Source: Vermamoeba vermiformis (lineage: Eukaryota). From it: a stretch of DNA of 20,000 nt. Shown piece after piece: positions 1 to 19,176 of the stretch. The notes beneath the pieces are model-generated. The model saw nothing but the letters and a program-made list of their open reading frames with translations. It was not told the DNA's origin and made no database searches. Position numbers and translations under genes: made by a program. Within the stretch, counting starts at the first letter, position 1, and each line of letters opens with the position of its first letter. Where the stretch lies: assembly GCA_045837725.1 (NCBI GenBank), contig JBEWZL010000304.1, positions 179,191 to 199,190 of the forward strand, in the 5' to 3' direction.

Positions 1-1355
1 AAAGGCAACTTCTTGTGCTCGATCAGTTCCTCCCAAGCCGAGGCTTTGTTGCCCTTGGCAGAGAGCAGGGTCTCCCAAGTTTCAGGAGTAGGCAACTTCA
101 TTCTTCGGCCAGCACGTTCAATCTCAAACTGGCCAGACAGTCCACTCAAGCGGAAATCAGACTCGGCGACTGGATACTTCTTGCCCAAGAGACACATGAC
201 GTTGTAAACGGGCTTCGACAAATGGAGCTGTCGAATCATTTGCTTCATGGTCAACATGGGCTTGTCGGGCTTATTCATGCCCAACTCGCGCATCTTCTTT
301 TGCTTGCGCTTGATGGTACGTTCTTTGTTGTACTTTCCGAGTTGATAGACATCAAAGTTAGGGAATTTATCGACCATTGATTTTCTCAAGCAGGTCGGGA
401 TTGACTTTCCTTTGAGGACTAAAAATAGAACATTGTGAGCAAATCTCGCGATACGAGGCTAATAGAGTCGATCTAGTTGTCGTTACAGTAACTCTGAGAC
501 TTACGTTTGTCAGGCAATGTTTGATAGGTTGCCGCGACATCAAGCCAATCAGAAGGCAAAACGATGATTTTGCTAAAGTATTTGCGAACATAAGGCTGGC
601 ACTCAGTAATGTTGCAAGCGAGAGCAACCAAATAGTTAGCGGTTGATCTGATTTGAATCAAAGTTAGAAAATATTGAATCATATTATTTCCGTCTACCGC
701 ACGTACCTAATGTTTAAGTCCTGACGAACGTACAACGCGAGCTTAAGTACAAACTCAGGGTCATAAAATGCAATAGTCTTGCAGGATTTAGTAATCTTAA
801 TGTAAGTAGGATTGGTTGGGGAGAGTTTTGGTTCGTTGATTAAAGCAGCAGAGACCATATTCAATAATTTCACCTAAAGAGACCAAGCGGTGAGTCACCA
901 AATCCGACGGAGATATTTTTGGCAGATGATCTTACCTTGGTCTGCTTGAGCTCTTGTGGGGTCATGCTTTCGAATTCTACGTGAGTCGCTTGGGCGTAGT
1001 CGCTAAAATAGCAAAATCAAGTTAATAGCTGCTTCAAAAAGGTGGCTAAAGTAAGTCAATCTGGCTCAATTCAAAAATAAATTTTAAAAATCAATATTCA
1101 GCAGAAAAATAATTAATTCAGTACTTACATTTGTGGCTGGTTATCACGCACCAATTCCATAGCTTGCGGGTTCTGAGTGGCCGTTACAGTTTGAGTAGCC
1201 GATCCAAGACCTCGTCCACGAACAGCACCACCACGAACAGCGCCACCACGACCCCCGCGAGCAGCACCGCCACGTCCTCCGCGTCCTCCACGAGCAGGAC
1301 CACCACGACCTCCACGAGAACCTCCTCTACCGCCTCTGTTACCGCGTCCCGACAT
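1..1355 (-). CDS. TEP1: TEP1/p80-like TROVE-domain protein with N-terminal RGG region; 5' part only, continues beyond the left edge
   Basis: Exons 1355-1129, 1002-936, 873-707, 647-505, 418-<1, all GT-AG and phase-consistent. The translation contains DPEFVLKLALYVRQDLNIRSTANY, YFSKIIVLPSDWLDVA, PTCLRKSMVDKFPNFDVYQLGKYN, TMKQMIRQLHL, LLGKKYP and RAGRRMKLPTPETWETLLSAKGNKASAWEELIEHKKLP. These match my recollection of the TROVE domain of TEP1 and ciliate p80 better than Ro60. Confidence 0.9.
1205..1352 (-). repeat. Low-complexity RGG/RG-coding repeat in TROVE exon 1
   Basis: Encodes GRGNRGGRGGSRGGRGGPARGGRGGRGGAARGGRGGAVRGGAVRGRG; imperfect ccacg/ccacc tandem units on the + strand. Confidence 0.9.
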
Positions 1356-1864: not shown

Positions 1865-4800
1865 TTATCTCAAATCGACACGAGCAGCATTTCGTGGTTC
1901 GATCTTGAGCGACTGCTCTTCCACAATGGTTTCTTCCAAAGTGGGCAGGTGATTAATGACTCCTTGTAAGTCGTCTTCGATTTCAATGTCATATTTAAAC
2001 TGTTGGAACCGCAAGACGGAGTTAAAGATCAGGTTGTAGATCATGCGTCTCTTGGCGAAGTTGATCAGCTTGACGTTGTTTACTTTGACCCAATCGGGAT
2101 TTCCTTCGTCAATGAAAGTCAAATCCTTCATAACGACACCCCTAAATAGCATTTGGTTAGTATTTGCGTTCAGGATTGCCAACCTAGAATAAATTTGTGG
2201 ATGCGATCCAAAGCTCGCTGGAGCTTCGTGGTTTTTGTTTGAATTTCATAATGCTACGAATAATTCCTCGACTATTGTACTTCAAGTGGGTACTTACAAA
2301 TAAGGAATGCACGGGCCTTCGATCTTTTCGATCTCCGCACGGTAATTTTTGAAGCTGCCTTGCATGTCCATTAATTGTTCTAACTCTTGCAGAACTTGAA
2401 TAAGTTGCTTAGGTACTCGCGCCATAGTCCACTTTAGGCGAGACACTATTAATAGAACAAAAGATTAGTATCAAAAATGATTGGATCTGCACGACAAGAT
2501 CTTACCAGCAAAATGATTCAGACCAGAGATGATCGCGGTTAATAAGTGGAAGTTGTTCATGTCTCGTAATCGCTTTGCGATCTTAATAAACTTGATCACC
2601 AAGTCAACACGCTTCTTCAGTTGATGTTCGAAGCAAACAGTCGTTGTGACCCACCTTGGTTTGCAACATTAGTCAAGCTGCTAGAAGAGATCGACAAACG
2701 TTCAAAACTTACGAGGCTACTGTATTGAACATTTCAATCATTTGGCCAACCATGCCATCCTTATTCTTGAGCCAGGCTTGGTTCAGCAATTCCGAGATCT
2801 GACACGAGCACGTTAGATCCGATAGTTTGAGGAACTTGGATTTCTTACCTTCATTTGTGAGAAAACATTGGAGAGTCTGATAGTCAGTTGCTTGGCAATA
2901 TCATTTGTGCGAAGCTCAGAGCGAGTCCAATCGACCTTATCAATAATGCTCATGTTCTTAAAATCCTTCGCAGTCAACACTTTGTAGATGTCTCTCGTCG
3001 AGGCATTTCTCTTCAACTTGAAGCTGTTGCTTCGGGATACTGAAGGACTGGCATCTCCAGGCTGTCCATCACTTTCTTTCTGTTATTGAATATTATTAGC
3101 AAAAGTTGACACGTGTCAAACATCACTCATGAACGTACTCTAAGTTCGAATAAAGTGATGACCAAGCGCGTTACTGTTTCGTTCTTGATAGTAGGATCCT
3201 TTGTGACGACGTTGCGGACCAAATGTTCGAGTTTCTTATTTACATTGACTTCTTTAGCATCTTCGGGTGAGTAGTATTTCTCGATGAAATGACCCAAAAT
3301 GAAACACACTCGCAACTTGATGCGGCGTTGAAGATGAGACTTTTCTTTTGGTACTTCGAACCTGAGAGAGATATTATTAGGTAAGCTAAGGGCTTAAGAA
3401 CGTCACGTGATTCTACTTACAATTCAGCCAACTTGTCAAGGAAATCTTCGACGCTCATGAACGTGGATAAACTTCCCAAGAACGGATTCAAATAGTGCTT
3501 GTCGCCTATGACAGTCGTTAGCACGTGCAAGTTAGGCAGAGTTCGTGAGGACTTACCAAATTTGGTGTTAACGAGCGCCAAGATCAGTTGGTACAATGAA
3601 GAGGCCTCGACAATAAGTTCTTCGCCTTGTTTCGTGAACTGAATGTCGTCTTGCTTGCTCAGGTCTTGTTCGACATCGGCCCAATTGATCTTCTTTTTCG
3701 CCAGCTCACGTCTCGCAGTCAATTTAGCTTCAAAATCTTGACGTGTGATGACAGTGACGCGATTGCCTTCGTTAATGTTGTACTCGAGTAAAGACTTGTT
3801 GATGTCCATTTCAATCATCTTGCCGTGCACTTTGCGGTAGGTAATCAATTGACCCACTGGCGCGTTAAGTTTCGGGAATTGACTGGACTCAACGACCTGC
3901 TTGAACGGGATCGCGGAATCAACTTTGACAGGTGTCACTTTCTTATCGCCGGTCTTCAATTGGATAGTGATGAATCGTCTAAGCAATTGCAAATTCATCT
4001 AAGCCGATTGGTGTCAGTAAGTTTTTCAATATTTTTTTGCACTGACTTACTCTGTTGTTAGGTTTCAGTTGGGCTAATGTCATGTTGCCATCGAGCCATG
4101 AGAGTGCTCCGTCAACACTAGCCGATACAAAGCTAAAGTCTTTAGGATCGCCGAGTTGAGTGCGGATTACTGCTAGGGAGACCAACTTGTTGACTTTCAT
4201 TTGAGGATCCGCTCTGAATTCAATTGAATTAGTTACAAGAAAGGATTATAATATTTGTAAAATAGGTGGAACTAATTATTAAATAATAGAGTTCTTTGAG
4301 AAAGGCGTACCTGAATTTTTCTTTTTGTCTGGATGCACCTTCAGAAGATCTCGCTCGGCCGCTAGCAGAATTTTCTTCATAGTAAATAATCGTATCAACG
4401 AATTTAGGTCGCAGCTCGATAATGTTCGATTGAGTAACGACGGAGCTATATTTAGCCAAGGGCTCCGTGTCTTCAAGTGGCAAGTAGAATTTCTCGCCGT
4501 CGCCTTCAGCAGCCTTGACAAATCTCCATTCGGAGAGTTCAGCGGAATTTCCTTCGTTTTCATTGTGTTTGTAGTAAAGACCCCATTCTTGCGACAGATC
4601 GCCTTTGAGTTGCTCGACCAAAGCCAAAGTCAATTCGCTGCATTGCTTGTTTGCATCAATTTCGACGATATGATCTTCGGTCTTAGTACCAGACTTATAT
4701 TGAACTGTTAAAGTCCATGGCTGGTATTTAAACTCGAATAAAACCTAAATTTTCTTTGATTAGATCTGACGTTCTTTCCATACATAGAAGGTAAAGACAA

Positions 4801-7800
4801 AGCATAATCGGAGCATTTCCGTAAAGAGATCAATATTCGAATGATTAATATACTTACAGGTCCTTTAATATTACGTTGGAATAAGGAAACGTCTCCGTGT
4901 AACCAAGATCCAGGCTCGATCATGACTTGTGGTACCTCGCTCTGTAAATTAATGTTTAGTAAATAGCGCAAATAATATTGTCATAATTATTTAATTAATT
5001 AGAGTTGCGTTCACCGAATTTAAAATCCTAGGATTTTAGTCCGTATTACGGATGTAGCTAAATTATGTGATTTTGGGTATGCAAGTAGTGCTTACTTTAC
5101 GAGGCGAGGAATCAGGTAATACATTTCCAGGCAAGAACAGTCCAAAGTAATGGAATTCGCTTTCAATGAACCCTTTCTTCATGAGTTCTATGATTATTCG
5201 TTTGAATGTTGTGGTGGCGTCGTAAGAGAGCAGTAAATAATAAAAACCAAAAGTATTGGTCACTATAACCACAAAATTCTCGTCCAGACGGAAATGCTGG
5301 CGGTTTGCAACGAAATACTAAATAAGGAGATTAGTTCAAGTGAACCAGATCAAAAAGACACGCGAGATTGAACGGGAGATACATGAATTATTGCAAGAAT
5401 TTGGATTCGTTCCAATCGTAAGCGGATAAATTATATTCCTCGTTATAAAATTTCGATAAGAAATGGAGCAGGATCCGTCAAGAAAATTTAAATCAACGTC
5501 CGATCCAACTAAAAATAGCTTACCTCAACGAGCTTTTCTCTTCCATGTTGCACAAATAGCTCTTCCAGATCATCGTTGAATGATTTATGAAAGGTTCGCA
5601 TTAAGGGCTGAATATCTTGCGAGGCTCGAGATTTCCATTCCTGAATGATAAAGATTAAGTAATCTCCATTAATCTCATCGTTTAGGATTTAACTTTAAGA
5701 ATATACTTTAAATAAACATAAACAATATATTATACTGTTTAAATATGAGCTAAATACTTACACCGAGGTAAAACACGATGCCCACGGCAATGAATTCATC
5801 GCGGATCTTCATTCGGGTTTTTAAGTCCTCAGTATGATGTAGAACTGTATTAATGAACTCTAATACGCATTGGACGTGCTAAATAGTAAAAATTAAGTAT
5901 TAGTAAAGCAATATCCAAGCACTATATTAGTTGTCATTTAACAGCCAGATCGTTCTCATTACTACCGTTATTAAGCGTGTATTTGATGCAAAAATGATTG
6001 ATTATTTGTGATATTGTATCGAAGGTGTATACTTACTTGAGGATAAGAAAGAGATCCATCGAGGTAGAAAAACAGCGGATCCATTCGATTGTTCTTTGTC
6101 GGTGAAACAGCAAATTGAGCGGAGAATCCATCGAGAATAGTACTATAACATTAGACCGTTAATAACGGTTAATAAAGCGAATACTGCGTGACACTTTGTT
6201 GACATTTTTTGACACGGGACTTTGCGTTGTTTTGACACGCTACTTACGGAATGCCTCGCGGAGCCTTTGTAACGATTTTTCCAAGTAATTTGATGACATA
6301 TAAATACATTAATGGCACGTCTTTGAGCGTCAATAATAACATTAGAACGCGTCCCATGTTGACTGATTGTTCCATCGCTTCGAACATTTCATAAATATGG
6401 TCCTAAAAATAGCATTAATGAACGTATATAGATGCTAATATTAATAACAATAAAGCTTGTTTGTTATTAATGAATCACATAATTTAGTTGATAAGACTTA
6501 CGTTTGCAAAATAGGCTATAATCGCCAATAAATCTAAGATAATTTCTTTAACGTCCTCAGTGAGCCTATAATAAAAAAGAGAACATTACTATGAGAATTC
6601 TATTCACAAGAATTTTTTGGTACGCGCGCGTTGAATAAAAATTTAGCCGCGAAATAGTTGCAAAGCTTGACTTACTTAGTTTGCGTATTGACTTTGAGTA
6701 AATATTCGAATATATACTTGATTCCTCCTGACGATACGAATGACGTCATCCATTGCGGAGTTACACGGTGAATAACAGATCGAAGTGCTGCAATGTCGAT
6801 CCAGCTCAATGACGGTTTAGCAAGTGCTTCTAAATAATATTCTACTTGTAATTTGCGCGGGTCATCTACTTCCCCGGTAAGAGATCCGCGTCGCGAGGTT
6901 GATGGCGATGAATCAGCAGAATCACTATCGCTGTTACAAAAAAACGAGTCAGTACGAATAAATCGAAAAGTGGCGTATAAATATGCCTTCTAAATGATTG
7001 CGTATTAATATAGCGCTAAACATTTTATTAGATGAATAGTTTTTATTCGTTGAAAGATGACGCGATCCAGAATCAAAATAATTTTTTGGTCAAAATAGAG
7101 ATAGTTCGCGAGTATAAATATGCGTAAAGCTAATTAACTAATGAATAATAATATTTTTTGTAATGTGAAAGCATTGTAACTGTTGCGAATTGTCTAAATT
7201 TGGAATGTGGACCTAAATAACTGAAACGCTTCATAAAAAGCAATAGCTATTATTTAAATATGCTCTATACTATTATGAATATTAGCTTACCTATTTCTCC
7301 TTTGCAATTCAGGCGGCAACTCACCAAAAAATTTAATTGAAGCTGAAGATCTTCGAGCGGGTACGGCAGGTGCTTTTAAAGATATTAGTACGAGCGTCTT
7401 GCTTATAATAAATATACTATCGATGGTATCATTCGATCACAAAATTTGCGTTGGAACTCTTAAACATGTGACAGCTTGGCAGCACGTTAATTAAATCAAT
7501 TCAACAAAATCTGATGGAAAATCTTCTATAGAAATCGATAGGAAATATTCAATACGAGGGCTAAATATGCCTTTGAAGCTGACAAACGAATATTTAAAAA
7601 TTGTTACCTAAAACCGGAGATGTGGGCGCTGAATACGCTGAACCAATTGTAAATCCTCTATTTCTATTTTCTGCATTACTAGTGCCATTTGCTTGTTGAG
7701 GAGAGCCCGGAGCGCTGCCAATTAACGACCGAGTAGTGAGCGATCCGACGGATTTAGGCGCTGCGGGTACTGGAGGCGGCGTGTTAACTCTTCTGACAGT

Positions 7801-10100
7801 ACCCATGGAAGGGTCCGATGAACGCAGTTGTGGTGTTGATATTGACGAGTTCATAGTAAGAGTGCTTGATCCAAATATAAACGAGCTAGAATCTCCGTGG
7901 CTGGATGATAATTCAGGCTTGGATTTTTTTCTAATGAGAATTGGATTCACTCCTAATCCGTGCGTTGGACTTGATGGCGTGCTTTGTGAATTGCTAAGTA
8001 AATCAGCAAGATTGCCTTTTCGCGACGATTTTTTGTCGATCTTGACTGTAGCAATTTGATCTAGAGCCAAAAAAAATTAATAAATAATTTTTGGCGTTGA
8101 TTTACTATTGACTTGTGTGTTTACAACGGACAATTTAAAAATAATTCTTCAGGCGGTTTCAAACAAAAAAAATTTGACACGTGTCAAACATTTACATTGT
8201 GCTTTGATATCATGAAGGCACGCTTATTATGTACATAGATTTTCGGGTCTTAAAGTTACTTGTATACTTTATACATAACCGAAGCAGAAAAATTTAAATT
8301 CAAGAAATGTGTCAATTTGTGAACCGCGAATAAAAAGTACTTAAATTGAGCTGCTTATGCTATGTAATTACTTACATTTGCCTTCTTTATCGACTTCTAG
8401 CGTTTTCATGTTCGCCCAAAGAATTTTCGCTTGCGATTTCCACTTGGTCTTCGAGTTTTTGCAATTGTTTCCGTACAGCGACAAGATCGACAAACTTAAT
8501 TGCGTCTCGACCTCCGCTGGTGTTGTTTCTATCATATTATTGTGCAGGTATAATTCTACTAACGTTGGAAGCTTCAATAATTCCATAGGCAATTGCTCGA
8601 GTTTGTTGCCGGACAAATCCAACGTTTGAAGGGCATCAAAGTGCTTAATTTCGTTAGCAGTCGATGTTACTAGCTTGTTGTTCGATACATCTAATACTTC
8701 TAACGAGGAAATTAAGCCGTGAACGGGTTCAGGTTGATACCTCTCGAGCCAAACCCAAATCTGGTTATTTTGGAGGAACAACGTGTTGAGGCTTTGCATG
8801 AATAACAACTGCTTCGGAAATTCGCTGATGGCGTTGTCGCTTAAATTAAGCATTTTCAGTAGAAGCAGATCCTGGACTTGGTGCGAAACCGTCTTCAAAT
8901 AATTGAAGCTGAGGTCCATTTGTTGAAGGGACGAGCCAATATCCATTAATACTGACTTGTCTTCGATATCTCTCCATGATTTGATCGAGTTGCGGCTGAT
9001 ACTTAATTTTTTAAGATTTTTAAATGTTTTTCCAATGGCCTCGAGGCATACATCTGCCGTGAAAATACAAAGTAAGTCATAGAAATGATAAATCGCGCTT
9101 AGAAATAATATTGGCACTAATTTTAGATTTTTTGTAGGTCCGCAAACGAAGAAAAAAAGAGAGCCGATCTCCGGATCGAGCCAGGACTTACCAGACAGTT
9201 GATTTCTCGTCAAAGAAAGCTCCTCCAAGGAATCCAATACGTAGTTGTTAGGATTTTCGAAGACCTTGATTTCGTTGTTCTCCAAGTTCAAGATCTTCAA
9301 CGATTTGAGCGCGAAAAGCGGATCAGGGATGTCGTGCAAGTTGCAGCTCTCCAAAGAGATTTGAACGAGCGATTTAAACTCCCTAAGGAATAATACACGA
9401 GTTAGTTGAATCCTAAGCCATAAATAGCACGCGATCTGGACACACGAAAATATCTCTGCTTCGGACACGTGTCCCATCGTGGATCTCATTACACAAGCAA
9501 CTTTCCGAATCGTTGCCATTGCAATATGGTCGAGTACGTGCTATTACTGCGATTCCATGCTCTTAGAACAGAATTCGAGCAAGATCCACTTTTTAGAACA
9601 CACCCGAACACAAAGATTTTCTGATCGGATCCGCGCATGTTCGTAAAACGTGTCCGACACACTAAAAATTCGGTAAAATACCGCGATTAAGCGATCAGGT
9701 CCTACGTGAGCTTTATCAAAGCATTACTGCAGTCCCTCGCAGAATCATCAGTAATCAGCCGATCTCTGGGTCAGATCCATCCAGGTCCCAGAAACAATTG
9801 TTTTTTCGTTATTTTACACGTCGTAATGCAGAGAAAAAACGAATAATTTCGTACGGGACCATAAAATTTAAAAATTACGACCGTCGAATTTTAATGGGAC
9901 GCGTTTATGGCCACTTACTTTGCAATACCACGAAGATGGTCTAAATTCTCTTCCAGCGCCAAATCTTTGAATCGAATAGCTAGAACTGTATTATCCTTAT
10001 TAATTAATTCATTCTTGATAGATCCGGGCTTCGCGCTCTTTCGCTTCTCTTTCTTCTCTTTCTCCTTCTTATCTTTGCTCTTTTTTACGCTGTCATCCAT
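1865..10100 (-). CDS. Multidomain RasGEF: LRRs - Ser/Pro linker - formin GBD/FH3 - about four ubiquitin-like (FERM-F0/RA-like) modules - REM - CDC25; resembles Dictyostelium RasGEF-L; ~1647 aa
   Basis: 23 exons, every junction phase-consistent (4944 nt): 10100-9919, 9382-9192, 9053-8376, 8060-7608, 7372-7291, 6930-6676, 6565-6502, 6402-6248, 6142-6037, 5878-5762, 5640-5524, 5317-5096, 4941-4858, 4744-4311, 4213-4051, 3998-3557, 3505-3421, 3361-3139, 3079-2849, 2798-2713, 2654-2506, 2445-2298, 2141-1865. LRR: LxxLxLxxNxL repeats. GBD: VEYYLEAL..AALRSVI..PQWMTSFVSSGG. FH3: CVLEFINTVL..DLKTRMKIRDEF. REM: VEASSLYQLILAL, RRIKLRVCFIL. CDC25: [49 protein letters not shown]. Confidence 0.88.
3106..3123. 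repeat. Palindromic 18-bp motif TTGACACGTGTCAAACAT, copy 1 (inside a 59-nt intron)
   Basis: Identical to 8174-8191; the core TTGACACGTGTCAA is self-complementary. Confidence 0.85.
8173..8191. repeat. Palindromic motif TTTGACACGTGTCAAA(CAT), copy 2 (intronic)
   Basis: Perfect 16-bp palindrome at 8173-8188; 18-bp identity with 3106-3123. Confidence 0.85.
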
Positions 10101-12613: not shown

Positions 12614-13481
12614 GGCCTGGACATAAAATTATTTCCTGTACTCCACTACGTGATAACAAATGGTGAGTTGGGCTGGTGGGTTGCACAGTTCGGTCGTTCA
12701 ACAATGCGTTGATAACTTTTGGTGAAAGAATCGCGTGGCAAAGGCAGCTTAGCTAAGAATGCTTCCAACCCACACGCCAATTAATTTTAAATAAAACTAC
12801 GAGTTGTTTATCGGCGTAACTTTTATTTAGCCTAATACGCCATTCACGAAAATAGACAATTCGGAAACCTCCGCGCCATTGAGTGCGTAATTCTGCGGTG
12901 TCGGTCAAAAGGTCCAGTGTATAACCACTGAACATTTCGACTTATCTGAACATGTCAGCCAACAGATTGGCTAGCGTTAGGGAGCCTCAAAAGCATAATC
13001 GTTAATATTTGAGTGAATCTATTGTACTGCAATATGCTGGTCGGAGCATGCCGAGCAATTCACAGTTTCGAATAATTGCCGATATTTTTAGTTTTGTACT
13101 GTCGTGAAAATATCGGTCGATCGCATAAAATTTATTTTTGGCAAAATCCAACGTTTTCGGCGTATGCTGGACCGCGAAACAAGCTAATTAAATCCGATGG
13201 GATTACCAACCTGCATAATCTCGAACCCAGCGTAATGGATGACGCTATTATATGAAGAAACATAGATACCTGGTAGGCGTGACAGATATTCTGATGAGAA
13301 ATCTGGTGTCTCGAAACACAGGCGATAAAAGACAGCTTAAAGATGGAATGCGAGAGGGGTACAGTACATCCCGCGCTTATTCGCAGGCATTGCCAAAACA
13401 GGTCCGAATGAGGTGCGAAAAGGATCGTTTATGGAATAGAGTACACTAGGTGTCAGTATGAACAACATACGACTTTTACAA

Positions 13482-13505
13482 TTAATTGCTATGCATAGCA
13501 ATTAA
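13482..13505. repeat. Perfect 24-bp palindrome TTAATTGCTATGCATAGCAATTAA overlapping the stop codon of the small ORF
   Basis: The sequence equals its own reverse complement; the TAA of the 13502-13654 ORF lies within it. Confidence 0.95.
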
Positions 13506-13654
13506 AAATAAAATGTTTCACCACCACCAGGATCGTTGATGGGACCGGTTTCACCGGCACCGGGATCGTTGAATAGACGAGTTTCGCCGGCACCGGGATC
13601 GTTGAATAGACCACTGGAGGTGGTAGTGAAGCCCATGCTCACAGGTGCGTTCAT
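13502..13654 (-). CDS. 50-aa intronless small protein with three NDPGxGET repeats (putative multicore peptide precursor)
   Basis: MNAPVSMGFTTTSSG-LFNDPGAGETR-LFNDPGAGETG-PINDPGGGETF-YF*. The ATG has A at -3 and follows a CAA-rich leader; CATAAAT (TATA-like) at 13724-13718. Differences among the cores are mostly synonymous. Confidence 0.7.
   Translation of the reverse strand: MNAPVSMGFTTTSSGLFNDPGAGETRLFNDPGAGETGPINDPGGGETFYF
13513..13609. repeat. 33-bp tandem repeat, three imperfect copies
   Basis: gtttcaccaccaccaggatcgttga / gtttcaccggcaccgggatcgttga / gtttcgccggcaccgggatcgttga at 33-nt spacing. Confidence 0.95.
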
Positions 13655-14323
13655 CTTGCGTTGTCGTGTGCTTGTTGTTGTTGAGGTGAAATTGAATGGT
13701 TCAGCTCAATTTTTCTGATTTATGCTCCCTAAGAGCACGTGACTGACTAAAAATGGCATGGACCCCGAAATATGACCGCGTTCGGCGAACGGGACCTTAC
13801 CGAACAATTAATAGAGTCAACGTCACGTCATTTAATTAACCTTTGGTGGAAGATCGGATCTTTCCGGTGTTCAAAGCTATGACAACATTTTCATTCGGTC
13901 GTTTAGGCCGTGGACAGCAGCCTTCGTGTACACCAACATGTTCACATTTATTGATGTATATTAATGCGACGAAGTTTGCAAGGCGGTCGAAGATAACATT
14001 TAAGGCTTTGTCCGAGGTTCTGCACTCAGCTCAATTGTTCGTACAGAGGATGGCCGTTTGAAAATGCGGAGAAATTGAGGCTTGCATTGCCTGCACCTCA
14101 AAACATTATTATTTACTATTTATGTACAAGTTAGATCACTACCGCCTTATTCATAACCGTTGCAGTGCTTCGCGTCAACATCAACAATCTACAATAGCAT
14201 GGCTAACTACTACGATGCGCGGTAATAAGTACGTGAAACTACTTAGCATAATAATATTTATTACAACACAAAGGAATTGAAGCTATTACGCAACAAACAT
14301 GCGTCAATAAGCTCTTACGACCA

Positions 14324-15749
14324 TTATTTGTTGGCGAGAATGTATTGTCCGGATTGAGCATTCGTCGCCAACACAACCGTGTAATCCTCAGATGCTTCGA
14401 CGACCTGTAAAAGCAAGTTAACGATTGACGTAACAAGATAATAATCAGGTCTCTTACTTGTTCAAAGAATCGAATGTCAGGCTCGTGAGGATGAGCTTCC
14501 ATCGGATCGATGAAGAAAATGATTTGGCTGCACAAGCCTGACAACGCTACGTGTGCAATTTGAACATCACCACCTACGCTAATATTCAGTATCGATGATA
14601 AATGAGGGATCGTAAAGGATCTACACTCTACCTTTAGGACCGGATTCGCATAAAATAAATTTATGCTCGAACTCTTCTTTCAAATCAGGGCGTGCTGCGA
14701 TGAAAAATTTCTTCAACCAACCGCCTGTCGTAAAAATACTCGAATTAGCATTGACGAAGAAAAAGATTGACTAGAAATTGTTACCTGTAGTTCCCGTGGC
14801 CAAAATGAAGTCGTACGTCAACAACGATTTCAAATGTTGCATGGCAAATAAACAAAGCTCCAATTTCTTGCCGTCATGAGCAATTAACGCGACATTATTG
14901 TTCGTGCATTTGCCGTTACTGTCTTTCGTAGCCTTAGCTCTGATCTTATCAAAATCGACAACAGGGCTCGTGCTAGGTCCGTATTTTAACGGAATTGCGC
15001 CAGTTTTCCACGCGTCAATCATAATTTCTGCACCGCGCACACTATCAGCATAGCTCACATTGTGAACCTAAATCTTACTTAAGTATGCATAATTTGAGGT
15101 CATATCGTATTATTTTGCTATACTTGCCGATGTCATTTAATGGTAAAATTTTGGTACCATTTTGAAAAAATATAATTGAGATTTCAGGTCTGAAATAGTA
15201 GCGGGAAGTGGATCCGCTTGATCTTCTAGAAGAACTTACCATTGATTGTCGCTTTAATACAGACCACGAAAATGTCTTATGAATATCCTTGTAGTGCGAC
15301 AAATGAATCAATCCCGCCAATCTGCCTTCGACAAGCTCGTGTGTCACGGCTACAATTCCTACAGATCCGCCAGGAAGCTTGATTGTTTTCTCTAAATTAT
15401 AATTATAAATTAACTAATCCAGATTAAATCATTACAGCGTTGAAATGCGTAAGATTTCGTTTTGAGACTATAAATAAATATTAAAATTGAACAAAAAAAT
15501 TCTGAGCCTGCAATTCTTCATTAGACGCTTGCCTTTGTATAGTTTAAGATCTTCTTGGGTCAATTCATTTTTGTGCACGAGATCCTGCAGCACATCCAGC
15601 AGAAAATCAAAAGTTTTGCCAGTGATGCAGATATCCGTGTTTGCGAGTAGCCATAGCAAATTATTCTTTAAAAAGTTACCGCAAATATCTTTATGATCGG
15701 TTCTGAATCTTTCAGTGCTTGTTAGCGCGATCCTGATCTTCGAAGCCAT
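14324..15749 (-). CDS. mgsA: Methylglyoxal synthase with a degenerate N-terminal MGS-like domain and a catalytic-type C-terminal domain, ~313 aa
   Basis: Exons 15749-15533 (GC donor), 15391-15240, 15067-14785, 14724-14632, 14573-14458, 14404-14324. The C-terminal half has the MgsA motifs VALIAHDGKK, LATGTTG, SGPKGGDVQI, IIFFIDP..AHPHEPD and LATN. The N-terminal half echoes them degenerately (IRIAL, ITGKT, ELVEGRL..LIH, VHNV). Confidence 0.88.
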
Positions 15750-15979
15750 TTTGTACGACTGCTTGAAGGCAAATAAATAATCGGGTAAGAGTGTTGAAGG
15801 TAAAAAGAGTTGCTTCCCGTTTGGGCAAAGAGGAAATAATGTGTTTCTGGAATTTTTTTTAGGTTGCGATTGCCGGGTTGTAAAATGTGTACGAGCACCT
15901 TTCTTAGTGGATGGACGAGGTTATTAGCACTCTTATTTACAAATTTACATTTATACAGCTTTAAATCAAAATTTAAACT

Positions 15980-16943: not shown

Positions 16944-19176
16944 CTATTTCTGGATCACTTTCTTTTGCAAATAGTTCTGGATCCTCGGGAAAACAGGTGT
17001 TCCAAGACCAGTCACAGCGTCCCAGCCATAGGTCGCAGTGAATCCGTATTTCGAACAACAATTCTCAGTACATTTGTTGTTGCCCGACGTAATGTCAGTG
17101 AAGGTCGTCGGATCTTCTGCTTGCATCTTGTATAACAACGGATTGATGAACCCAAGCGAGTTCTTGTTGTTGTTTAACATGTAGCTATTCAAAAGTGCAA
17201 TCATGCCCGCTACAAGTGGGGTCGAGGCCGATGTTCTGGCCAATCAGAATCAGTTAGATATGCATTATAGGGCATACTATAGTATAATATGTGTCGTACC
17301 CGTCGGCTTGTTGGAATCCCATTGGATAAAATTGAATCAAGTAGTTGTGGCCGTTAGCGCTAATGTCCGGAAAACCTCGGTTTGATTGGTTGAAAAGACC
17401 CGTTGGAAATCCAACTCCGGAGTTCAAGTATTGAGATACAGCGGTTTGTTGCCAACTAGGAACCGTATTTACTGCAGAGAATCCTCCACCAGTGGTAATT
17501 AACGCGGCTATTAAATTTATAGGTTAATTTCGGATCCGTTCATCACTGAATAATTCTTACTTGGAAAAGTGCAAACTCCTTCGAGACCGGTAGTAGCGCA
17601 TTGAAATCTGTAAGAATATATTAGAAACTTTTAATTTAATCGATAATACGACTTACTGTTGGCAGATGGGCGGTTGTCGTACCGGCAACGTAGATCCACC
17701 AGGAACTAACATCGTAGCGCCAACACCAGTGACCCACGGTGAGGTCGCAGGATACATAGTAGAAATAATAGGGTTTTGGCAGAAAGGATTTGAGTCACCA
17801 GGAGCTCCTTGATCTCCGGATGAGGAGATCAACGTAACTCCTTTCATCGTAATTTTCATGAATTCAATATCAGTTCGTCTAATGTAATCGGAATAACCCC
17901 CAGAATTGCAATTGAAGTCGATAGTGCAAGTTGATTCTTCGGGGAAACCATAAGACATGGAGACTACGAGCGGATAACTCTGCGCGTTGAAAAAGTTCGT
18001 TGCGAACTCGTACATCCAAATCAGCTCGGTCCAGTACCAGAACGTCGTGTTGAGAGCAATCGAGCTGCCAGTCTTTTTTAAAAACAACGTTAGTATTCTG
18101 AGCATAATACGAAACTTAAATTGTTATTTTCATACATTAATATAAATGAGTTGTAAATTTAGTTCGGCGAGCATATTATTATTACTTAGCCATACCTCGA
18201 CGTCAAGCGTGGGTTCAAGAGCACTTTGTCTGCTGCTGAACGGGCCAATGATCTTATCAACGTGGACCTTCTCGTTCATGCCAGCATTATACACAGGCAA
18301 GTCATCAGGGTCGTAGCTGCGTTGATCGGCAACATTTTCCCAGAAAAATTGAACCACGCCAAGCGAACTTTTTGGATGCACTTTGTACGAGCTAGGAACT
18401 CCGTACATTTGTCGTAATAAAGCAGGATATACGAATCCTAAGGGATCATTCGATTGTTCAAGAGAACGTTGCTGTGCTGAGCGGCTCTTAGGTCTGGTTG
18501 ATGGCAGAGGCACGAGTTCGGACAAACCAAACACCATCTCAACGATCGACAAGTGATCTGGAACGTGAGCCGGTCCAAATACACGAGCGATCATGCCACC
18601 TGCAGTATTTCGGTAAGTTATGCCTTTAATAGGTAATTCTTAATTTTTTCTTACCGGTCGCGGTGGATTTGTAGTAGAACATTTCCGTCTTGAAGATCTT
18701 CTCGATAACGCCAATCTTCGTTCGTACTTTAATGAAGTCCCTTCCAGACGCATCAATATCACTGATTCCGTTAGCATGTAACCATTCCAGAACGGGCTCA
18801 ACATCTTCCAAGGGAGGTGCGATCAAATCCAAGATCTGCTCAGTCGTCCACCATTTGCCTGAATTTAAGTATTAAATACGGTTATCTTATGGTACTCAGA
18901 GTTGTTACCATAGTTAACGGAATCTGGGTCGGCCGCATCCAACACTTTCGCCTGCGAGAATTTTTATTAATTAGAGATTAAATTCTATTTATTTCTTACC
19001 TCTAATATTTCTAAATTTCTCTGCTTAAGGGCTATTCTGAACTCGTGCATTCTTTCAGGATTCGCGCGGTTTAATTTAATGTACTGGGCTGGAACATGAT
19101 CTCGCACGAGCACCACTCTGGCTTCAATAAGCACTAAGACAACAGCAAGTATCGCTACGATGAGTAAACGCGACAT
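16944..19176 (-). CDS. Sedolisin-family (S53) serine-carboxyl peptidase, TPP1/physarolisin-like preproenzyme, ~596 aa
   Basis: Exons 19176-19000, 18951-18909, 18858-18655, 18599-18196, 18072-17657, 17607-17561, 17507-17300, 17235-16944. Signal peptide MSRLLIVAILAVVLVLIEA; prodomain IALKQRNL..DPDSVNYGKW; catalytic E-x-x-L-D (EPTLDVE); oxyanion SSGDQG; RGFPDISA; nucleophile GTSASTP; Ca-site DITSGNN..GWDAVTGLGTP. Confidence 0.95.

Follow-up and report, generated by a model that had tools for sequence, protein, structure and literature searches.

Gene neighbourhood and layout of the repeat ORF

The recognisable genes of the window, by which we mean the whole 20,000-nt stretch of DNA analysed here, all lie on the minus strand, and the same strand holds a short ORF built around a tandem repeat (Table 1). 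At the window edge, an exon at 3–458 (minus strand) contains a TROVE domain of the Ro60/TEP1 type (Pfam E 4.2e-37). A run of minus-strand exons at 1865–9540 gave a RasGEF match (E 3.1e-6), a weak RA-like match and a strong LRR match (E 4.2e-25), and, going by these matches, could belong to a single large multi-exon signalling gene or to several genes. At 14300–15920 (minus strand) lies a gene resembling methylglyoxal synthase, with short introns; one of its exons matched solved methylglyoxal synthases at E 4.8e-6, and its second intron, GTAAGA..TTTTACAG, was predicted by eye near 14405–14467. The gene upstream of the ORF has its own stop near 14326 and an AATAAA at 14262–14257, and the ORF is therefore not the tail of that gene. 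Exons resembling sedolisin/tripeptidyl-peptidase-1 (S53) were located at 17653–18639 (minus strand), for which Pfam gave nothing at E ≤ 0.01. The S53 peptidase mentioned in the initial annotation is nevertheless recognisable, as the TPP1-like exon at 17653–18123 matched solved TPP1 at E 3.8e-6; the gene is 4 kb from the ORF, with other genes between.

Retranslation of 13654..13502 gave the identical 50 residues and the three 11-residue units that the initial annotation had quoted, their cores being NDPGAGET, NDPGAGET and NDPGGGET. The codon differences it had listed among the units, synonymous plus one A>G, agree with the sequence, and the CAA-rich leader and the CATAAAT at 13724–13718 are both present. 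Tandem Repeats Finder assigned the array a period of 33, 3.0 copies, 84% matches and no indels, which makes it the strongest of the seven tandem-repeat rows in the 20-kb window. The back-translated NDPGxGET pattern was found three times in the window, all within this ORF, and not once in 200 shuffles. Among the three units, variation in the 24-nt core affects 4 of the 8 third positions and 1 of the 16 first and second positions (one-sided Fisher p = 0.028), and 5 of 9 positions are variable in the linkers between the cores.

Table 1. Coordinates of the repeat ORF and the features around it
Feature	Position	Strand	Remark
50-codon ORF + TAA	13502..13654	-	15-residue head, 3 x 11-residue units, FYF end
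Tandem array, 3 x 33 bp	13515..13613	.	Tandem Repeats Finder
Rival 59-codon ORF	13539..13718	+	same third-position nucleotides as the minus ORF
TATA-like CATAAAT	13718..13724	-	35 nt upstream of the X4 contig 5' end (13683); putative promoter element
CAA-rich presumed 5' UTR	13655..13683	-	ATG-free from CATAAAT to the start codon
Perfect 24-nt palindrome	13482..13505	.	overlaps the stop codon; strongest hairpin of the predicted RNA fold
Presumed 3' UTR	13440..13501	-	much more diverged than the ORF in X4
CATAAA, possible poly(A)-signal variant	13428..13433	-	downstream of the contig end; putative role

A contig covering the ORF in a second organism

The sequencing runs found comprised three DNA runs of organism A (X1–X3), with word shares of 0.92–0.59, and one run of organism B (X4), with a share of 0.30 and guessed to be RNA. 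We compared X4, together with X11–X13, with positions 12700–14700 of the window, using 90% likeness as the threshold for the fit of a contig. One X4 contig of 245 nt, with a word depth of 27.2, fits 13477–13683 and contains the entire ORF with 29 nt upstream and 25 nt downstream. Coverage of the 2-kb stretch by X4 is confined to 7 of 30 bins. Another contig, of 399 nt and depth 4.64, skips 14574–14631, a minus-strand intron of 58 nt with GT..AG ends; with this intron removed, the frame runs on unbroken through the conserved region of the methylglyoxal-synthase-like neighbour. The spliced contig of the neighbouring gene makes X4 look like cDNA; the RNA status of the run is a guess by software combined with what this one contig implies. 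Most simply, a close relative would carry a discrete, short transcript across the ORF. Neither strand nor true ends can be read from a contig, and its depth says little about expression; the strand is deduced from other features.

Three RNA runs carrying the species label of organism A (X11, X12 and X13) were searched as raw reads and gave 0, 0 and 2 reads, respectively, on 12700–14700, and the comparison was marked as no test. The two reads fall in the neighbouring gene and are 90–95% alike, and the species label probably covers a strain or species diverged from the source of the window.

Within the ORF, the window and X4 differ at four positions (13520, 13523, 13535 and 13547), all of them third-position transitions and all synonymous, affecting the codons of Gly45, Gly44, Asn40 and Thr36. 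The initial annotation had named a frameshift or stop in a homologous locus as evidence against a gene; the X4 copy has neither, its ATG, TAA and frame are intact, and it contains no indel within the ORF. With 50 of the 150 possible transitions in the ORF being synonymous, the probability of four out of four is 0.012, or 0.037 when the neighbouring pair of GGT>GGC changes counts as a single event, in what is a single pairwise comparison with a copy that could be a paralogue. The sole listed indel, a 1-nt insertion in X4 behind 13497, is 5 nt past the stop and inside the 13482–13505 palindrome. The next 37 contig letters at the low-coordinate end did not fit at 90% likeness; by eye this loose end can still be matched to 13447–13476, with many more differences, and the 3' flank is thus far more diverged than the ORF. 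The four differences are also clustered, as all are in codons 36–45 and none is listed in 13548–13683, including the presumed 5' UTR. Under a uniform rate the probability of such clustering is approximately 0.005–0.016, similar to that of the codon-phase pattern, and the clustering could equally well stem from repeat turnover, from constraint at the nucleotide level or from a gene on the plus strand.

The ORF could alternatively be without function, a chance frame over a young tandem duplication between genes, with the X4 contig representing DNA carry-over or transcriptional noise. Such a reading would be in line with the guessed RNA status of X4, with the counts of 0, 0 and 2 reads for X11–X13 on the 2 kb (though marked as no test), with the lack of relatives in our searches and with an unremarkable codon usage. 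However, the spliced contig of the neighbour argues for cDNA, DNA at a word depth of 27 would be expected to extend past 245 nt and into more than 7 of the 30 bins, and the phase of the X4 differences follows the codons. On balance, we regard the absence of function as unlikely. The hidden gene proposed in the initial annotation has thereby gained a cDNA-like contig that spans the ORF and keeps its frame, although this contig comes from a second organism and the strand is read from the anatomy of the locus.

Coding strand and the non-coding alternative

A 50-aa ATG ORF is alone weak evidence for a gene. The window contains 44 ATG ORFs of at least 50 aa, compared with 21.6 +/- 4.4 in 50 shuffles, and three of the six frames stay open over the array because the repeat period is a multiple of three. 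On the plus strand, the frame with codons from 13503 reads as VSPxPGSL repeats. Its third positions are those of the minus ORF, and the argument from synonymous changes is therefore not specific to a strand: none of the four differences from X4 changes a residue in the plus-strand frame either. The same applies to the selection on the core peptide claimed in the initial annotation, for which the excess of third-position variation (p = 0.028) speaks as expected, but with equal force for the antisense frame.

The product of the plus-strand ORF would be a protein of 59 aa with VSPAPGSLNR repeats followed by a hydrophobic tail. In addition to the silence of all four changes, its frame has a slightly higher codon-usage score (+11.5 bits for the antisense frame and +6.5 bits for the minus ORF, using a table of 1622 codons from the recognisable exons of the window, a gap too small to tell the strands apart), and the differences from X4 thin out towards its coding part. 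However, three of the four changes (13520, 13523 and 13535) would be in its 5' UTR, where their shared phase has to be attributed to chance with a probability of 1/27. Its start codon has T at -3 and is preceded by three upstream ATGs (13458, 13491 and 13513), it takes in two of the three units, and it ends 35 nt past the end of the contig. Its product had 273 candidates in the protein search, none at E ≤ 10, no called protein was found for it, and its strand is opposite to that of the recognisable genes of the window. We therefore consider a real product of the plus-strand ORF very unlikely. The minus ORF has A at -3, and both of its ends and all three units are inside the X4 contig; the start context, the upstream ATGs and the contig ends favour the minus ORF. 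The letters of the CATAAAT at 13718..13724 also fit the CATAAA variant of the poly(A) signal.

A transcript of the locus could also act as a non-coding RNA, with the ORF being a by-product of a tandem duplication whose 33-bp unit happens to be a multiple of three. The predicted fold of the minus-strand RNA of 251 nt is more stable than that of any of 200 shuffles (MFE -77.7 kcal/mol, z = -4.17), and the 24-nt palindrome at the end of the ORF could, judging from its sequence, form a hairpin at the 3' end or bind a protein. The 136 nt with no listed change, including the presumed UTR, suggest constraint at the nucleotide level, and the open frames over the array, the commonness of 50-aa ORFs and the lack of a protein homologue in our searches also speak for this reading. 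In the opposite direction, all four differences are in one codon phase (p 0.012–0.037), the variation within the array favours third positions (p 0.028), the context of the first AUG is good, the ORF is intact in X4, and Rfam gave no match for the locus at E up to 1. We consider the non-coding RNA a rather unlikely alternative.

Relatives, known precursors and the predicted peptide

The search with the peptide among proteins of near length returned the query alone, and the search among longer proteins gave 358 candidates, none of them at E ≤ 10. There were no matches to the peptide among PDB sequences or in Pfam at E ≤ 10 and no usable match in the ESM Atlas. Using phmmer against a representative library, we obtained 11 matches at E ≤ 1e-3, one of them the query itself. 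The remaining 10 are unrelated tandem-repeat or low-complexity proteins and were rejected as relatives, their similarity being compositional: NDPGxGET is found in 0 of 10 and DPGxG in 1 of 10, and one has an 11-residue NDPGG repeat. The two-unit DNA pattern was not found in metagenome contigs. The one-unit pattern FNDPG[AG]GET gave 8 metagenome, 9 prokaryote genome and 0 viral loci, all 17 of them single copy; 14 have a common flanking context and three (L003, L005 and L008) differ. We translated the opposite strand at these three and at 4 sampled from the 14, and in the latter (L006, L009, L011 and L013) LFNDPGAGET corresponds, codon for codon, to the opposite strand of GFAGPRVIEQ, a conserved stretch in a bacterial carboxyltransferase gene of accD type. 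The 17 bacterial-type loci were thus rejected as kin, being chance matches multiplied by a conserved carboxyltransferase gene, with L003, L005 and L008 unrelated; the corresponding antisense in the window has stop codons. The literature search did not find the NDPGxGET motif strings. The missing relatives are weak evidence because the DNA pattern scans covered metagenome, prokaryote and viral sequences and because gene callers seldom report ORFs of this size.

Three further ideas about the ORF were discarded. An intron that removes the stop and extends the frame into 54 open codons downstream was rejected, as X4 follows the window colinearly across the stop. The second Met (MGF...) as a start for an N-myristoylated product was dropped for the aromatic residue at position 3, which is disfavoured for this modification. 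The C-terminus shows what we take to be a likeness to the hydrophobic-Tyr-X motif of proteasome-activator type, and this was dropped as a resemblance of three residues only.

The initial annotation had proposed a multicore precursor of a RiPP-like or signal-like peptide. In the form considered here, each unit would be cut, for example after Pro by a macrocyclase of prolyl oligopeptidase type, giving linear or cyclic peptides of 11 residues. The layout invites this comparison: a head is followed by three near-identical in-phase units with a conserved core and variable linkers, and Pro recurs every 11 residues (P20, P31 and P42), leaving two Pro-bounded 11-mers in the peptide. According to the passages of PMC6514808 that treat these families, the precursors of orbitides and dikaritins have several cores each; those of the MSDIN family consist of a conserved MSDIN leader, a hypervariable core and conserved flanks, with invariant Pro residues beside the core after which POPB cuts; and those of ustiloxin, phomopsin and epichloecyclin begin with a signal-like sequence and have a KR site in each repeat.

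Compared with MSDIN (amatoxin/phallotoxin) precursors as these passages describe them, the peptide is similarly short (35 aa in MSDIN and 50 aa here), has no signal peptide and has potentially bracketing Pro residues. In contrast to them, its N-terminus MNAPV is no MSDIN leader, it has three units and not one core, and its conserved stretch of 8 residues spans the Pro, that is, the proposed cut site, and does not flank a hypervariable core; the three variable residues per unit are the reverse of the MSDIN arrangement (PMC6514808, same passages). With UstA, PhomA and GigA, the KEX2-processed dikaritins, it shares the tandem repetition of a short conserved peptide in one precursor, but differs from the accounts given there in having no KR or dibasic sites (no Lys, one Arg) and, by inspection of its hydropathy, no signal-like N-terminus. 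Plant orbitide and cyclotide precursors, too, have several cores each, which protease-type cyclases release and cyclise, but in these plant families the cyclase is PCY1 or AEP, and their sequences show no similarity to ours. Unlike lipopeptide pheromone precursors of the a-factor type, the peptide lacks a C-terminal CAAX box, ending in TFYF and having no Cys; the maximum Kyte-Doolittle value of 0.72 over 9 residues agrees with the initial annotation, which had seen neither a signal peptide nor a CAAX box.

Nor is a maturation enzyme visible in the window, as had been noted at the outset: the 19 ORFs scanned had no match to POP (including a POPB-like S9 gene), AEP, ATP-grasp or DUF3328, and tyrosinase, which like DUF3328 is a partner of the dikaritin precursors, was likewise unmatched by Pfam in the scanned ORFs of the 20 kb. 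The sole peptidase is the distant S53/TPP1-like gene. Our literature search found no link between RiPPs and Amoebozoa, the co-mentions being incidental as far as title and abstract tell. Going by its sequence, the ORF resembles a multicore precursor in layout, yet it lacks those defining features of the compared families that a sequence can reveal. With no relative, paralogue or maturation enzyme found and the family features absent, the proposal gained no support, and processing into 11-residue peptides appears highly improbable. We give equally little credence to a new class of protist precursor, cytosolic and composed of a leader and three cores, from which linear or head-to-tail cyclic peptides of 11 residues would be released at the recurring Asp-Pro/Pro-Gly junctions by a macrocyclase of prolyl oligopeptidase type or through the known lability of Asp-Pro bonds. 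If true, either would give this lineage its first family of ribosomal peptides resembling natural products and open a new source of ribosomal peptides in protists, an expectation that at present draws on the layout.

The tiny repeat gene is probably real, transcribed and stand-alone, with a putative function. We tentatively favour a small, independently transcribed and lineage-restricted gene, the likeliest mode of action being that of an unprocessed micro-protein presenting a motif. The gene would be transcribed from the minus strand as a short mRNA of approximately 250–300 nt, starting some 30–35 nt downstream of CATAAAT, and translation from the first AUG (13654) would give an acidic peptide of 5.1 kDa with no signal peptide. 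The predicted peptide has a pI of 4.05 and a net charge of -5.5 and contains 10 Gly, 6 Thr and 5 Pro; an AlphaFold2 model built from this sequence alone had a mean pLDDT of 56.6, too low to use. Such a micro-protein would be cytosolic and mostly disordered, the NDPGxGET core would be its selected part and the linkers free to vary, and with its three short motifs it could bind a single partner multivalently, be this a protein or a metal ion.

In several respects, the locus looks like the taxonomically restricted small-ORF (micro-protein) genes of eukaryotes. It has a short lone ORF with its own short transcript and a low-complexity, probably disordered product, and such genes have no homologues outside close relatives and are missed by length cut-offs. 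It differs from typical cases in the in-phase repeat of 3 x 11 residues with a seemingly selected core of 8 residues, and in that its translation is deduced. If real, these 50 codons with no homologues are a gene invisible to standard annotation, and cDNA contigs from a sister organism combined with codon-phase analysis can rescue such genes. The in-phase triple motif also offers an experimental handle, through tagging, pull-down and mass spectrometry of the two tryptic halves.

Beyond the stop codon, a 14-nt stretch at 13421–13434 (minus strand) is 93% like part of unit 3, from which it is 108 nt downstream, and encodes INDP in the same frame. The stretch could be what is left of a fourth unit after decay, or the likeness could be due to chance.
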